DNA of 5,318 nt. Source: Escherichia coli. GTDB taxonomy: Bacteria; Pseudomonadota; Gammaproteobacteria; Enterobacterales; Enterobacteriaceae. The DNA lies in NCBI RefSeq assembly GCF_044324875.1, contig NZ_CP172190.1. One strand, written 5' to 3'. The translations under genes and the position numbers were made by a program. Shown one piece after another: positions 1-5,263 of this stretch (position 1 is the first letter of the stretch; each line of letters begins with the position of its first letter). The notes below the pieces were generated by a model, which had not been told where the DNA came from, did not search any database, and worked only from the letters and a program-made list of their open reading frames with translations.

Positions 1-147
1 GAATGTCGGGCTATTGGCAAGAGCATTGCGAAATACACGCACAGGAACTTCACGCCGGAAACTTTCGCACAGTATGTGGCTGATACGCACACGCCAGAAA
101 TTCAGGCTGCACGAGATGAAGCCGAAAAGCAAATATGCCATGACTAA
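1..147 (+). CDS. 3' end of an upstream gene (last ~48 codons; product not recognised)
   Basis: Frame 1 is open from the window edge to TAA at 145-147 and translates to a natural-looking acidic/helical tail (...AIGKSIAKYTHRNFTPETFAQYVADTHTPEIQAARDEAEKQICHD). The antisense frame is also open but is Arg/Cys/Phe-rich, as expected for the non-coding strand. The start lies outside the window. Confidence 0.35.
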   Translation, partial: ECRAIGKSIAKYTHRNFTPETFAQYVADTHTPEIQAARDEAEKQICHD

Positions 148-173: not shown

Positions 174-746
174 TCACGTCAAGATAAAATAAATACCTGT
201 ACCTAATATAAAAATGGAGCTACATATACTTATGTACCTTGAGAATGACGGAGTTAATTTATCCCTTATCGTCAAGCTAATAGCTATGTAAATAATATCT
301 GTCAGGAATGATATAAATATAAACAAAACACCCAATATAAAGAAATTTAATGCGATATTTGTATTATCATCTATAAATGCTGGTATTAATGCCGCAAAGA
401 ATAAATACGCCTTTGGGTTTAATAATGGTATAAGTAAAGGTTTTTGTACTTTGCTTTTTTTGTTTTTTTTATTAATTAAACCCATTACCCCTATGTATAT
501 TAAATAGCTTCCACCTAAGATCTTTATAATGTAAAAGTGTTGTTCTATGCTGGATGTTGAAGATAACGTGAAAAGAGATATTACCATGACGATTGCTTCG
601 CCAGATCTTATGTATACACTTGTTTTTATTGATGATTTAAGTCCTTGTGAAAAGGCGTTGTTTATAACCAATGCAACACCAGGTCCTATTGATATAGTTT
701 GAGATAAAGTTACGATAGCAAATGAAAATAATGTTGAATATTCCAT
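174..746 (-). CDS. LysE/RhtB-family amino-acid exporter (small six-helix inner-membrane translocator)
   Basis: 190-aa ORF, strongly hydrophobic with several predicted transmembrane segments. It carries an N-terminal SIGPG motif and a central PLLIPLLNPKAYLFFAALIPAFID segment matching the NPK...LFF...P(A/Q)FI signature of the LysE/RhtB family. Size is typical (about 190-210 aa). The gene is very AT-rich compared with the rest of the window. No strong Shine-Dalgarno is visible upstream of the ATG at 746. Confidence 0.75.
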   Translation of the reverse strand: MEYSTLFSFAIVTLSQTISIGPGVALVINNAFSQGLKSSIKTSVYIRSGEAIVMVISLFTLSSTSSIEQHFYIIKILGGSYLIYIGVMGLINKKNKKSKVQKPLLIPLLNPKAYLFFAALIPAFIDDNTNIALNFFILGVLFIFISFLTDIIYIAISLTIRDKLTPSFSRYISICSSIFILGTGIYFILT

Positions 747-1232: not shown

Positions 1233-1301
1233 GTAGCCAGGTTGAGCACATACGCACGGTTTTTCGACAGGTGATATGCGCCGAACCCGCATGAATACTG
1301 G

Positions 1302-1310
1302 ATTTCCACA
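1302..1310 (+). promoter_or_regulatory. DnaA-box-like 9-mer (ATTTCCACA)
   Basis: 8 of 9 match to the TTWTNCACA DnaA box consensus, in the same orientation as the two other boxes, upstream of the AT-rich repeats. Confidence 0.4.
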
Positions 1311-1397
1311 GGGTTGAGCGGGGTTTTTGCTAAAGTCCGCGAAGTGGATTTTTGTAACATCTTGTTTTTTCTTGTTTTTCCTTTTGCGCACCCCAAG

Positions 1398-1406
1398 TTT
1401 TCCACA
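1398..1406 (+). promoter_or_regulatory. DnaA box (TTTTCCACA)
   Basis: Full match to the relaxed consensus TTWTNCACA, located about 20 bp upstream of the AT-rich 13-mer repeats, the expected place for DnaA-assisted unwinding. Confidence 0.5.
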
Positions 1407-1426
1407 GGCTCGCTGTTAAGTTTTTA

Positions 1427-1465
1427 GATCTTGTTTTTAAGATCTTGTTTTTAATACTTGTTTTA
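1427..1465. repeat. AT-rich DNA unwinding element: three tandem 13-mers (GATCTTGTTTTTA x2, ATACTTGTTTTA) with Dam GATC sites
   Basis: Direct repeats at 1427-1439, 1441-1453 and 1454-1465, resembling the oriC 13-mer consensus GATCTnTTnTTTT. Further copies of CTTGTTTTT lie at 1361-1369 and 1371-1379. The block sits between a DnaA box and the iterons. Confidence 0.6.
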
Positions 1466-1508
1466 GGGTCGAATTTTCTTATGGAATTCAAGAGTTTAGA
1501 AGACTATA

Positions 1509-1591
1509 GGTAATATAATTTAAGGTAAAGGCAATATGATTTAAGGTGGATAGGCAATATGATTTAAGGTAAAGGCAATATGATTTAAGGT
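1509..1591. repeat. Iterons: four direct repeats with ~21-23 bp periodicity (core GGCAATATGATTTAAGGT)
   Basis: Exact 18-mer GGCAATATGATTTAAGGT at 1530-1547, 1553-1570 and 1574-1591, plus a degenerate copy GGTAATATAATTTAAGGT at 1509-1526. The spacing of about two helical turns and the position directly upstream of a Rep_3 gene are the classic iteron arrangement. Confidence 0.85.
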
Positions 1592-1592
1592 A

Positions 1593-1601
1593 ATATCCAC
1601 A
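1593..1601 (+). promoter_or_regulatory. DnaA-box-like 9-mer (ATATCCACA) between iterons and the rep promoter
   Basis: 8 of 9 match to TTATCCACA, immediately after the last iteron. Confidence 0.4.
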
Positions 1602-1617
1602 GGAAAAGGGATATTAA

Positions 1618-1658
1618 AATTAAATCATATTGCCTTTACCTAAAGGAATGTTTATATT
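1618..1658 (+). promoter_or_regulatory. rep promoter (-35 TTGCCT at 1630-1635, 17-bp spacer, -10 TATATT at 1653-1658) overlapped by an inverted iteron (autoregulatory operator)
   Basis: 1622-1640 is the exact reverse complement of the 19-bp iteron core GGTAAAGGCAATATGATTT; extended to about 24 bp there is one mismatch. Inverted-iteron operators over the rep promoter are characteristic of Rep_3 initiators (dimer binding, autorepression). The -35 element lies inside this inverted repeat. A GAGGG Shine-Dalgarno sits at 1678-1682, 7 nt before the ATG at 1690. Confidence 0.6.
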
Positions 1659-1689
1659 TTACTCATTGCCTTAGGTTGAGGGATTTACA

Positions 1690-2391
1690 ATGTCGGATCT
1701 GATTGCCTACAAATCCAATGCACTGGTTGAGGCCAGCTATAAATTGACTCTTCAGGAACAGCGATTCTTGTTACTTTGCATTGGTCGATTGAAGTCGGGT
1801 TCTGATGCAGAATCCACTGAATTGCAAAAGACCATGACTGTTACCGCCGAAGAGTATTTCGACTCATTCCCTGATATGGGGCGGAAAAATGCCGAGGTTC
1901 AGCTACAGGAAGCAATTGATCGTTTGTGGGACAGGTCGATCATCCTTAAGGACGATGAGAAGCGCGAGGAGTTCCGCTGGATCCAGTATCGGGCACAGTA
2001 CGCTAAAGGTGAGGGCAAAGCCCAAATCACTTTTTCAGATGCGGTCATGCCTTATCTGACACAGTTGAAGGGGCAATTTACTAGAGTTGTAATTAAGAAT
2101 ATCTCCAATTTATCAAGAAGTTACAGCATAAGAATATACGAACTTCTCCAGCAATTCCGCAGCACAGGGGAACGTATTATCGCCCTCGATGATTTTCGCT
2201 CAATGCTTGATATAGAGCATAAATATCAAACATATAAGTCTCTGAACCAGCAATTATTAAGACCTTGCGTTGACGAACTGAATCAAAAAAGCGACTTGGC
2301 TGTAACGCTTGAGACGATCAAGAAGGGGCGCACGGTTGTAGCCCTGCATTTTCGCTTCAAGGAAGACAAACAGATCAAGATGACGATCTAA
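1690..2391 (+). CDS. repA: Replication initiator protein, Rep_3 family (iteron-binding RepA/RepE/pi-type)
   Basis: 233-aa ORF with good Shine-Dalgarno and promoter, directly downstream of the iterons. The N-terminus (YKSNALVEASYKLTLQEQRFLLLCIGRL) and the segment YSIRIYELLQQF...LDDFRSMLDIEHKY...YKSLNQQLLRPCVDELNQKSDL...KKGRTVVALHFRF parallel, from memory, pSC101 RepA, F RepE and pPS10 RepA. Length is within the family range (about 230-320 aa). Confidence 0.9.
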   Translation: MSDLIAYKSNALVEASYKLTLQEQRFLLLCIGRLKSGSDAESTELQKTMTVTAEEYFDSFPDMGRKNAEVQLQEAIDRLWDRSIILKDDEKREEFRWIQYRAQYAKGEGKAQITFSDAVMPYLTQLKGQFTRVVIKNISNLSRSYSIRIYELLQQFRSTGERIIALDDFRSMLDIEHKYQTYKSLNQQLLRPCVDELNQKSDLAVTLETIKKGRTVVALHFRFKEDKQIKMTI

Positions 2392-3218: not shown

Positions 3219-3531
3219 GTTGACATCCTCCATGCCCTGAAGGACGGGGTTTTACAGCACACCGGATAACTATCTCGACATGGATATTGATACACGTTAA
3301 AAATACGTGACGCGTTTCTGGCAGATATCTGAGGTCTATTTCGCCGTGTTAGCCACACTGTCAGAAACGCGTTCAATTTCTCCCGTTGAGCTGATATGCT
3401 CATCACCGCAATCACGGTAGTGTCCGAAGACGAACCGTTAATGCATCTTCCCCCCGATACTGGGCTTTCGGGGGGAATATTTACTCGGTGCGCCGTAAAA
3501 CCCCGTCCTTCAGGGCATGGAGGATGTCAAC
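3219..3531. repeat. 313-bp element bounded by perfect 37-bp terminal inverted repeats (MITE-like element or invertible segment); interior 239 bp
   Basis: 3219-3255 GTTGACATCCTCCATGCCCTGAAGGACGGGGTTTTAC is the exact reverse complement of 3495-3531. The interior contains its own inverted-repeat pair (3310-3373) and a 9-bp G/C stem hairpin (3449-3476). No convincing CDS inside, and no target-site duplication is evident at the boundaries. Confidence 0.6.
3310..3373. repeat. Inverted-repeat pair B: ACGCGTTTCTG (3310-3320) and CAGAAACGCGT (3363-3373), 42-bp spacer
   Basis: Perfect 11-bp inverted repeat (15 of 16 if extended), sharing the CGCGTTTCTG core with pair A. It lies inside the 37-bp-IR element. 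Confidence 0.5.
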
Positions 3532-4376: not shown

Positions 4377-4471
4377 GTGGTCTGAGAGGGAGGCTTACGC
4401 GACCACACTGTCATCTCAGGATGACCAGCCAATGTTCCGGCAGTCTGAGAGGAGCGCCTTCGGGTGACTGC
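4377..4471. other. Two tandem structurally homologous hairpins (candidate structured RNA or protein-binding motif pair)
   Basis: Hairpin 1: stem GTGGTC (4377-4382) / GACCAC (4401-4406). Hairpin 2: stem GCAGTC (4440-4445) / GACTGC (4466-4471). The stem sequences differ but each keeps perfect pairing (compensatory changes). Both loops begin TGAGAGG and contain an inner mini-hairpin (GC-TTAC-GC; GCC-TTCG-GGT, a UUCG tetraloop). Both are preceded by CCGG. A further tetraloop hairpin GTCATC-TCAG-GATGAC lies between them at 4410-4425. Confidence 0.35.
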
Positions 4472-4934
4472 AATATCCCATGAGCCTGGAAGAGGATGCC
4501 TATATGGCGGCAACATCCGTTTAGCCTCTGGAAACGGATGTCACCAGTAGCTGGTGACTGAGGTACGTTATTTTTACCTTCGGATTACCCGTACGGTTTT
4601 GTATGTCATGAAACTTACGAGTTTTCCTCTCGCAGAGTGGCGAAATGCCTTATATATCTGCGTCTTAAAGATTTTCTGTCAGGCTGCATGAGCTTCTTGT
4701 GACTGTGCGCACGGCATAAGGCCATTTGAAATTTGGCTGCTTGCGTGTGTACGTGGAGTCTGAAGCTGTGCGGCGTCACTTGCGTGCGACCGGAGGGAAC
4801 ACCAAGTGACGCCACAACAATCTGCCCTGAAAGCAGCATCACGTAAGGCCTGCCAGAAAATCGTCGCTCGTGACCAGCGTTCTGATGACCGTTTTGTCTT
4901 TCTGACAGCGTCTTTCAGTAACGTGTCCATGCCT

Positions 4935-5037: not shown

Positions 5038-5127
5038 ATGAAAAATCGTTCTGAAGTCGGAAGGCGTCATCGTAAGATGACGGGGAGTAAAAAATCGCCC
5101 TGGTGCACAGGTAGCGAACTCCTGTAA
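5038..5127 (+). CDS. Possible small basic ORF (29 aa, MKNRSEVGRRHRKMTGSKKSPWCTGSELL); leader-peptide-like, speculative
   Basis: ATG at 5038 is preceded by AAGGA (5027-5031) with 6-nt spacing. The ORF is very short with no recognisable family, and lies about 55 bp downstream of the terminator at 4935-4981. Confidence 0.2.
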   Translation: MKNRSEVGRRHRKMTGSKKSPWCTGSELL

Positions 5128-5263
5128 AAACTCAACATGTGCAAGCTCTGCTACATCGACATCAAACGAGCCAGGAAGGCGAGCAACCGCGTTACAGAGC
5201 CGTCCGTGATGACGAAAAACTAACAATATCAACGATCTGGTCTGTTTATCGGAAGGGCATCTC

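Follow-up and report, generated by a model that had tools for sequence, protein, structure and literature searches.

Mini-F and pSC101 are iteron replicons whose layouts can be compared with that of the locus described here. The mini-F origin ori2 contains DnaA boxes, an A+T-rich region, four iterons, and the rep promoter, where the operator is an inverted repeat containing one half of the iteron, whereas pSC101 is arranged as a DnaA box, A+T-rich 13-mers, an IHF site, direct iterons, and inverted repeats over the repA promoter, followed by repA. Replication of pSC101 requires IHF (PMC4980987), and the mini-F initiator RepE binds one strand of its DNA unwinding element (DUE) (PMC4081077). A further described system is the family of small enterobacterial plasmids represented by pIGWZ12 and pMG828-2. 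For the prototype pIGWZ12, PMC6856555 reports the location of the origin, theta mode replication, ∼15 copies, an origin with four DnaA boxes, and iterons acting as incompatibility determinants. The Rep_3 group of the pIGWZ12 type is described as lacking a PlasmidFinder group (PMC6856555), and no PlasmidFinder name is given here.

The window, i.e., the whole stretch of 5,318 nucleotides analyzed, is a complete circular Escherichia coli plasmid of 5.3 kb showing 99.7% identity to pMTY9803_Col2, and two deposits of exactly this plasmid already exist. The initial annotation had described a complete and functional iteron replicon at 1298–2391 and had left it to circularity to decide between a plasmid and an integrated element. 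The circular record shows it to be a plasmid, and loci of the family are plasmid-borne at 667 of the 671 sites recorded across complete E. coli genomes. The family is present in 446 of the 5426 complete E. coli genomes (roughly 8%), and its usual carriers are plasmids of about 4 kb. The annotated interval lies inside the replicon, but the block conserved in the family is wider (1167–2483) and represents the sole replicon of the plasmid, which supports the proposed completeness and function. Very probably, this block serves as the basic theta replicon of a small enterobacterial plasmid of the pIGWZ12/pMG828-2 type and operates by the mechanism proposed below. The replicon is an ordinary and already known one, as it belongs to the described and experimentally studied pIGWZ12 family.

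Members of the pIGWZ12/pMG828-2 family, the MOBQ41 plasmids, share with the window the order of modules: four sites of the DnaA-box type are followed by an A+T-rich block of 13-mers, and four iterons then precede rep. Upstream of rep, the origin is collinear with those of the family, with 82% mean column identity and the modules in register in a 12-plasmid alignment, and the origin region of the 4091-bp family plasmids is 95% identical to that of the window. What has been published on the origin of pIGWZ12 (PMC6856555) agrees with the window origin. The module order is also retained in remote relatives, i.e., pYC and plasmids of Neisseria, Actinobacillus, Salmonella, and Pseudomonas. There is a deviation in the remainder of the plasmid: the MOBQ41 plasmids possess a MOBQ4 relaxase, mobC, and oriT, whereas the window plasmid lacks them and has a gene of the LysE family, along with other cargo, in their place. 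No relaxase or mobC ORF was found in the window, and a near-identical record is typed as non-mobilizable. Homology to the family begins at 1167, directly past the position where mobC ends in other members. The window plasmid is a mosaic with cargo unlike the 4.1-kb family backbone; on the basis of sequence comparison, its replicon belongs to the MOBQ41 plasmid family and its backbone does not.

The rep gene (1690–2391, + strand) codes for a 233-aa initiator of the Rep_3 type, built of a WH1 and a WH2 domain, the fold also present in mini-F RepE. The Rep_3 assignment of the initial annotation, for which a Pfam search of the protein had been suggested, was borne out by matches to Rep3_N (2e-36, 125.9 bits) and Rep3_C (9e-20, 71.2 bits), both well above the cut-offs. 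Structures of mini-F RepE aligned to Rep along its full length (1e-14); Rep is not an ortholog of RepE, since it scored 80 bits against a RepE equivalog cut-off of 342. The protein is 100% identical to pMG828-2 Rep (WP_011666799.1), while its identity to the pIGWZ12 protein is 88% and that to other family members ranges from 76 to 95%. The gene is intact, and the same gene is found in 34 other records at ≥99% identity. Along with the identity to pMG828-2 Rep, the MOB-suite type rep_cluster_1778, read from a near-identical record, provides the handle for typing that had been anticipated. By sequence inspection, a Shine-Dalgarno sequence GAGGGA (1678–1683, + strand) is placed 6 nt ahead of the ATG. 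On the 3′ side of rep, no terminator was detected by a consensus scan, and the RNA fold of 2380–2450 was at the level of shuffled sequences.

All the modules that had been claimed for this origin were recovered in or close to their expected places, with some differences in detail. DnaA boxes are present as proposed, but there are four such sites, one of which follows the iterons. DnaA box 1, ATTTCCACA (1302–1310, + strand; extended sequence TTTCCACAGGGTTG), has one mismatch to TTWTNCACA, and box 2, TTTTCCACA (1398–1406, + strand), matches it perfectly. Both are invariant in the 12-plasmid alignment, in which columns T54–G67 at box 1 do not vary among the 12 family members and the position of box 2 is occupied by the canonical TTATCCACA in most members as well as in pYC. 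The sequence TTCCACAGG occurs twice as against 0.04 expected, and the flank TT(A/T)TCCACAGG of the window boxes resembles that of oriC R1. Box 3, ATATCCACA (1593–1601, + strand), is located directly after iteron 4 and has one mismatch; its CACAG core does not vary among the family members, and the position is filled likewise in the Klebsiella plasmid, pYC, and Salmonella LR792480. A weak DnaA-box-like site, TTTTCGACA (1261–1269, + strand), with one mismatch to the consensus and only partly conserved in the family, would complete the set of four reported for pIGWZ12. Two elements can be added to the modules listed in the initial annotation, i.e., an IHF-like site and an ssiA-like element at 1167–1230. 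The former, ATTCAAGAGTTTA (1486–1498, + strand), differs at one position from WATCAANNNNTTR. The IHF consensus is unenriched in the window (14 matches vs. 9.8 expected), and the site is retained as a candidate, backed by its position: at the equivalent position, pIGWZ12 and the Neisseria plasmid show a perfect match, and pYC and Salmonella LR792480 show one mismatch each.

The four direct iterons (1506–1526, 1527–1547, 1550–1570, and 1571–1591, + strand) are 21 nt each with the consensus AAAGGCAATATGATTTAAGGT. Their 18-nt core GGCAATATGATTTAAGGT starts at 1509, 1530, 1553, and 1574, giving a spacing of 21, 23, and 21 bp, in agreement with the phasing described in the initial annotation. A single inverted copy of the core is present at 1617–1634, and at ≤3 mismatches, five core matches were observed as compared to 0.01 expected from shuffles. 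A degenerate direct half-iteron, AAAGGGATATTAAAAT (1605–1620, + strand), was recognized by sequence inspection; the Klebsiella plasmid and pYC have a clearer one there, at about −83, with 9/10 and 10/10 matches, respectively. Each of the 12 family members has four iterons, as do the remote relatives apart from the Neisseria plasmid, which has more, and the cores are lineage-specific: that of pIGWZ12 is GGTGGAGGAA, while that of the window is GGCAATATGA.

Compared with the known systems, the order of modules in the window is the same as in mini-F. The mini-F DUE is made of 8-mers, whereas that of the window consists of 13-mers of the CTTGTTTT type; mini-F is unit-copy, whereas the window family is multicopy; and for the second iteron array that mini-F carries as incC on the 3′ side of its rep gene, no counterpart was seen, as there were no further iteron matches in the window. 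The layout is also like that of the pSC101 origin and its repA. However, pSC101 has three iterons, whereas the window has four and an extra DnaA box after them, and the pSC101 iterons and Rep are probably unrelated to those of the window at the DNA level.

The predicted rep promoter (1630–1658, + strand) consists of a −35 element TTGCCT (1630–1635), a 17-nt spacer, and a −10 element TATATT (1653–1658), matching 9 of 12 consensus positions, and is the only promoter-like site on the + strand upstream of rep. Since promoter-like sites are unenriched in the region (two found vs. 2.7 expected), the assignment is based on position and conservation; the geometry is equal in pEC648_4 (TTCCAC, 17 nt, TACAGT). 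An inverted iteron over the −35 had been noted before and is indeed present at 1620–1644, but the operator extends to three half-sites (inverted, direct, and inverted) across 1620–1675, bracketing the predicted −35 and −10. Site A (1620–1644, − strand), identified by sequence match, is a full-length inverted iteron, 96% complementary to iterons 2 and 4 across 25 nt. Site B, AAGGAATGTTTA (1643–1654, + strand), is a degenerate direct half-site found by sequence inspection, and site C, CTCATTGCCTTAGG (1662–1675, − strand), is an inverted half-site with 8 of 10 iteron-core positions, at −28. Rfam microRNA matches at 1564–1644 were all below the gathering scores and were rejected; they only reflect the hairpin possible between iteron 4 and the inverted iteron.

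The operator half-sites covary with the iterons across 10 lineages. Six lineages have an inverted copy of their own iteron core around −64 relative to the ATG, a direct copy is found at about −46 in five other lineages, and an inverted copy lies between −25 and −32 in six lineages; within the family, the window/pMG828-2 lineage is the only one in which site A amounts to a full-length inverted iteron. When 10-mer cores were compared with operators in a cross-matrix, the mean match was 7.5 for own and 6.0 for foreign pairs, a modest separation owing to AGGTG being common to many cores. The recurring half-site positions were more telling than this matrix. These features support an autoregulatory role of the operator, i.e., autorepression of rep. 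The initiator appears to vary along with its sites. Rep residues 174–192, which align to the WH2 recognition region of RepE, sort with the iteron core: QF[RK]DLNK is paired with GGTGGAG in pIGWZ12 and pEC648_4, DFK[TI]LNRDLIKP with GGTGAGGA in pR21.0552_4k and the Klebsiella plasmid, and TYKSLNQQLLRP with GG[CT]AATATGA in the window and pEC224_7. Thus, variation in the predicted WH2 recognition helix tracks the iteron core.

Every binding and regulatory step of the proposed mechanism is drawn by homology with mini-F RepE, pSC101, and RK2, while the anatomy, conservation, and covariation of the origin are as observed. Rep monomers would bind the four phased iterons, with WH2 reading the variable AAAGG-core half and WH1 the ATTTAAGGT half, and host DnaA would occupy the flanking boxes at 1302, 1398, and 1593. 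With the DNA at 1486–1498 probably bent by IHF, the combined action of Rep, DnaA, and IHF would open the 13-mer DUE (1420–1467), the T-rich single strand of which may be held by Rep. Loading of DnaB would then lead to theta replication, to which the ssiA-like site at 1167–1230 could possibly add a PriA-type entry point. Rep dimers bound at 1620–1675 would cover the −35 and the spacer together with the stretch that follows the −10, thereby repressing the rep promoter, and iteron-bound Rep would both titrate the initiator and pair origins (handcuffing), so that the copy number is held down.

It is extremely unlikely that the Rep_3 module is instead a passenger or decayed remnant on a plasmid maintained from another origin. 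The candidates for such an origin are a ColE1-like RNA-primed one, a PriA-dependent one at the ssiA-like site, and the replicon to which a Rep-like tail at 1–146 would have belonged. Their appeal stems from the mosaic nature of the plasmid, from a short in-frame gene fossil at 1–146, and from the ColE1 ssiA-like element (PriA-type primosome assembly site-like; 1167–1230, + strand), which contains AAGCGG at 1218–1223 and forms the left edge of the conserved block. Over some 60 nt, this element is about 88% identical to a segment of a ColE1-like plasmid located roughly 100–150 nt beyond the predicted RNAII RNA/DNA switch, which we take to be ssiA by analogy with pBR322. A function of the ssiA type is inferred from this similarity; the single-stranded DNA fold of the segment is at shuffle level on both strands (z = +0.9 and +1.5). 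The segment is found in at least 5000 plasmid records and, being so widespread, may be plasmid backbone rather than part of the replicon. A general statement bearing on ColE1 ssiA is available (PMC3167613). Against an RNA-primed origin, the window contains no RNAI/RNAII match, and the fossil at 1–146 amounts to 48 codons after a stop codon, with no Pfam match. No second rep gene was found in the window, and MOB-suite reports rep_cluster_1778 alone. The rep gene, on the other hand, is intact and conserved in the 34 other records mentioned above, and every module of the origin is intact and matches the family consensus. The TTATCAGATAA palindrome near 897 was also considered as a ColE2-like origin and rejected, as 794–1078 corresponds instead to the sequence ahead of a LysE operon on unrelated plasmids typed as rep_cluster_2141.

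The basic Rep_3 replicon being the preferred reading, the question is whether Dam methylation acts on top of it. The DUE (1420–1467, + strand; 77% A+T) is nearly invariant in the family and contains three 13-mers, as had been proposed, but a Dam site is present in only two of them. The 13-mers 1 and 2, GATCTTGTTTTTA (1427–1439 and 1441–1453, + strand), begin with GATC at 1427 and 1441, and 13-mer 3, ATACTTGTTTTAG (1454–1466, + strand), has none. Upstream, the T-rich repeats CATCTTGTTTTT/TCTTGTTTTTC (1358–1380, + strand) keep their T-tracts in the family while other bases vary, and TCTTGTTTTT has two more copies starting at 1360 and 1370. In one form of a Dam/SeqA control, similar to that at oriC or P1 oriR, SeqA bound after firing to the hemimethylated GATC of 13-mers 1 and 2 would keep the DUE from opening again during part of the cell cycle; in a variant, methylation would be required for the DUE to open. 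According to the title of Brendler & Austin 1999, SeqA needs at least two hemimethylated GATC sites, and the pair here, 14 bp apart, has the proximity for cooperative binding by two-site SeqA. The window 13-mers, which start with GATCT, resemble the oriC consensus GATCTnTTnnTTT and match it at 9 of 11 specified positions. Both GATC sites are kept in 13/13 close relatives, the pair being found in 12/12 family members and the Klebsiella plasmid, and the pEC648_4 lineage retains both at a spacing of 13 even though neighboring bases have changed. However, this conservation cannot be separated from that of the whole block, as the sites fall within 45 invariant bp. Judging from titles in the reference list of PMC2865523, P1 and RepFIB replicons are Dam-dependent.

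Set against these points is the number and distribution of the sites. Unlike oriC, which has 11 GATC in about 245 bp, and the likewise GATC-rich P1 oriR, the window origin (1298–1690) has only two in 393 bp as against about 1.1 expected, and the whole plasmid has 17 as against 19.6. The oriC-like Dam sequestration that the initial annotation suggested therefore finds little backing as the core mechanism; the specific initiator here is Rep and not DnaA. The most deeply conserved repeat, 13-mer 3, is devoid of GATC. In more distant relatives, the GATC are not conserved: pYC (60% Rep identity) has AAATCTTGTTTTAG in place of the GATC 13-mers, its genus, Yersinia, being Dam-positive; the Neisseria and Actinobacillus 13-mers retain the motif itself without GATC; and those of P. 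mendocina pMET-2 also lack it. A single GATC occurs in P. syringae pPan126A, where it falls in the middle repeat. Moreover, the family is multicopy (∼15 copies), and the timing of plasmid initiation within the cell cycle is generally random. Initiation governed by Dam/SeqA in addition to the main mechanism is thus improbable.

TrfA and RepE bind DUE repeats in a strand-specific manner (PMC4081077). Rep_3 relatives whose Rep identity is only 36–60% also have the CTTGTTTT core, which is retained next to iterons of unrelated sequence on plasmids from Enterobacterales, Neisseria, Pasteurellaceae, and Pseudomonas. It may be that this core serves as a strand-specific contact of Rep with single-stranded DNA, in which case the contact surface would be the conserved one of this Rep_3 subfamily; we consider it doubtful that either this or, independently, a Dam/SeqA sensitivity of DUE opening conferred by the GATC 13-mers holds. 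If true, the latter would constitute a minimal two-site sequestration switch imposing a refractory period on each copy after firing.

As a discovery the locus carries little weight, and its practical value lies in annotation, the appropriate label for the window being that of a complete rep_cluster_1778 plasmid of the non-mobilizable type. Vector design based on this replicon could draw on the map of its origin, which takes in the operator with its three half-sites, the IHF-like and ssiA-like elements, and the pairing of the Rep WH2 helix with the iteron core; the map could also help in predicting the incompatibility of co-resident members of the family.

The window matched pMTY9803_Col2 (NZ_CP135677.1, 5310 bp), a complete circular plasmid of E. 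coli, from end to end with 99.7% identity, and a second match was found to a permuted 5319-bp plasmid from Swiss poultry. MOB-suite typing of the pMTY9803_Col2 record assigned it as non-mobilizable, with the replicon rep_cluster_1778. Only the segment 1167–2483 is common to a large set of ∼4.1-kb plasmids including pMG828-2 (∼96.5% identity); the rest of the window is different cargo, consisting of a LysE-family gene (174–746, minus strand) and non-coding elements. The rep ORF (1690–2391, plus strand) codes for a protein of 233 aa, the same as pMG828-2 Rep (WP_011666799.1), and its Rep_3 assignment was borne out by Pfam matches to Rep3_N (2e-36) and Rep3_C (9e-20) and by full-length alignment with the mini-F RepE crystal structures (1e-14). 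The replicon family was present in 446 of the 5426 complete E. coli genomes, with 667 of its 671 places on plasmids and four on chromosomes. Both the Rep_3 match and this distribution agree with the autonomous replication module, rather than an integrated element, proposed in the initial annotation. One chromosomal place, in E. coli H8 (NZ_CP010172.1, 46564–47709), carries the family at full length with 82% identity and may reflect either integration or an artefact of assembly.

The standard Rep_3 iteron theta replicon is the best explanation of the module, and we infer every step of binding and regulation in this plasmid. The family prototype pIGWZ12 shows theta-type replication at ∼15 copies per chromosome, and its incompatibility determinants are the iterons (PMC6856555, a summary of published work). 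The replicon is an ordinary, already known one, and the anatomy initially described (DnaA boxes, 13-mers, iterons, inverted iteron, and rep) was correct apart from some refinements.

In the cargo region, the LysE-family translocator (190 aa, Pfam 8e-21) is the only annotated gene, and the region upstream of it (794–1078) matches that upstream of a LysE operon in unrelated rep_cluster_2141 plasmids. Two Rfam matches scored above the gathering score, to STAXI RNA (4409–4568, plus strand, 89 bits) and EFASI RNA (5046–5168, plus strand, 72 bits); both motifs typically occur in plasmid regions. At 4360 and 4423 lies a 30-nt direct repeat, its second copy within the STAXI region. The 313-bp element at 3219–3531, bounded by 55-nt terminal inverted repeats with 91% complementarity (GTTGACATCCTCCATGCCCTGAAGGACGGGGTTTTAC...), resembles a miniature inverted-repeat transposable element; near 2636 there is a related motif, CCTTCAGGACGGGATGG. 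An open frame of 48 codons (1–146, plus strand) crosses the circular junction and ends in a stop (ECRAIGKSIAKYTHRNFTPETFAQYVADTHTPEIQAARDEAEKQICHD); it has an in-frame stop before it and no Pfam match, and is probably the fossil 3′ end of another gene. Directly after the rep stop, a 16-nt inverted repeat (2392–2407, AATCGATTTTAAGGCA; 2474–2489, TGCGTCAAAATCGATT) has its arms on either side of the 3′ end of the conserved replicon block.

The conserved block starts outside the region initially annotated, with a 64-nt G+C-rich segment containing AAGCGG (1167–1230). This segment is homologous to the ssiA region of ColE1/pMB1 and presumably corresponds to the pBR322 ssiA. It is ∼88% identical to a ColE1-like plasmid segment located 100–150 nt past the RNA/DNA switch, whose location was predicted from that of RNAI, and at least 5000 plasmid records, covering many replicon types, contain it; its single-stranded DNA fold was unremarkable. 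In ColE1 plasmids, ssiA lies downstream of the origin and is a PriA-type site for primosome assembly that becomes exposed when pol I extends the RNA primer (PMC3167613). The 1167–1230 segment would probably act as an accessory site for priming or helicase loading.

DnaA-box-like sites were located at 1261–1269 (weak), 1302–1310 (box 1), 1398–1406 (box 2, a perfect match to TTWTNCACA), and 1593–1601 (box 3), which adds a fourth site to those initially described and places one box after the iterons. The extended DnaA motif TTCCACAGG occurred twice against 0.04 expected. The 13-mers, GATCTTGTTTTTA at 1427 and 1441 and ATACTTGTTTTAG at 1454, form a block of 77% A+T; all three copies are present, with GATC in only two of them. 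The 450 nt upstream of rep were aligned for 12 family members across the similarity range (Rep identity to the window 76–100%). Boxes 1 and 2 and the CACAG core of box 3 were invariant, box 2 being the canonical TTATCCACA in most members, and the 45-bp 13-mer block was almost invariant. An IHF consensus match located between the 13-mers and the iterons was perfect in pIGWZ12 and the Neisseria plasmid and had one mismatch each in pYC, the Salmonella plasmid, and the window; taken by itself, the match in the window was not significant.

Remote relatives with 30–60% Rep identity (pYC of Yersinia pestis, a beta-lactamase plasmid of Neisseria gonorrhoeae, one plasmid each from Actinobacillus and Salmonella, and two from Pseudomonas) keep the module order with unrelated iterons. 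Most also keep the CTTGTTTT core of the 13-mers; P. mendocina pMET-2, for instance, carries it five or six times. Upstream of the unrelated iterons in Pseudomonas, Neisseria, and Actinobacillus Rep_3 plasmids, it often ends as CTTGTTTT(A/C)GG (pMET-2, L025, −430 to −340 from rep; also the related loci L021, L017, and L018). Since the initiators TrfA (RK2) and RepE (F; the Rep_3 member) bind strand-specifically to DUE repeats (PMC4081077), the conserved CTTGTTTT repeats are, by analogy, plausible Rep contact sites. The Dam-dependent, oriC-like sequestration suggested initially was not supported. The likeness to the oriC 13-mer is real (9 of the 11 specified positions of GATCTnTTnnTTT), and all 13 close relatives keep both GATC sites, even where these have come to lie 13 rather than 14 bp apart. 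However, this conservation is inseparable from that of the surrounding block, GATC is enriched neither in the origin nor in the plasmid, and the most deeply conserved 13-mer is without it. More distant relatives, including one from Yersinia, manage without GATC, which is absent from the homologous 13-mers of pYC, Neisseria, Actinobacillus, and P. mendocina. A contribution of Dam/SeqA to the control of the replicon is improbable.

Direct copies of the iteron core GGCAATATGATTTAAGGT begin at 1509, 1530, 1553, and 1574, with an inverted copy at 1617–1634 (five matches against 0.01 expected). The four iterons described are spaced by 21, 23, and 21 bp, about two helical turns, and four were found in each of the 12 aligned members. 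The inverted arm at 1620–1644, 96% complementary to iterons 2 and 4 over 25 nt, contains the −35 (TTGCCT, 1630–1635) of the predicted rep promoter, as had been claimed; the −10 (TATATT, 1653–1658) follows after 17 nt. This was the only plus-strand promoter-like site upstream of rep, and the call rests on position and conservation because the number of sites in the scan was no higher than expected by chance. Iteron 4 and the inverted iteron also form a 25-nt inverted repeat (1564–1644, 96% complementary) with box 3 in the 31-nt loop; this arrangement, specific to the window/pMG828-2 lineage, gave rise to weak Rfam microRNA matches.

Across lineages, the iteron core (positions 3–10) differs (GGCAATATGA, GGTGGAGGAA, GGTGAGGAGA, GGTGAACATT, and GGTGGAGCTT), and the sequence from the last iteron to the ATG varies in step with it. 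Copies of the own-lineage core lie inverted at ∼−64, direct at ∼−46, and inverted again at ∼−28 from the ATG, equivalent in the window to 1620–1644, 1643–1654, and 1662–1675, which bracket the predicted −35 and −10. Three such lineage-matched half-sites are the pattern expected of a putative Rep-dimer operator, and their covariation is stronger operator evidence than the single inverted iteron of the initial annotation. Some family members carry mosaic arrays. In the FDAARGOS_1388 plasmid (1140–1230), a core of the pIGWZ12 type, GGTGGAGGAA, occupies the third iteron and GGTAATATGA/GGCAATATGA the rest of the array, and in Col8282 and the related locus L007 all four cores differ. Such arrays suggest that co-resident plasmids exchange sequence or that Rep tolerates variation in the core.

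A variable patch in the Rep alignment (columns ∼174–195), corresponding to residues 174–192 of the window Rep, aligns to the WH2 recognition region of RepE and sorts with the iteron core in independent lineages. The pairing of QF[RK]DLNK with GGTGGAG is common to two independent lineages, and that of DFK[TI]LNRDLIKP with GGTGAGGA to two lineages. Because the patch sorts with the core, WH2 may read the core half common to iterons and operator, as in RepE, and residues 174–192 are a candidate specificity code.
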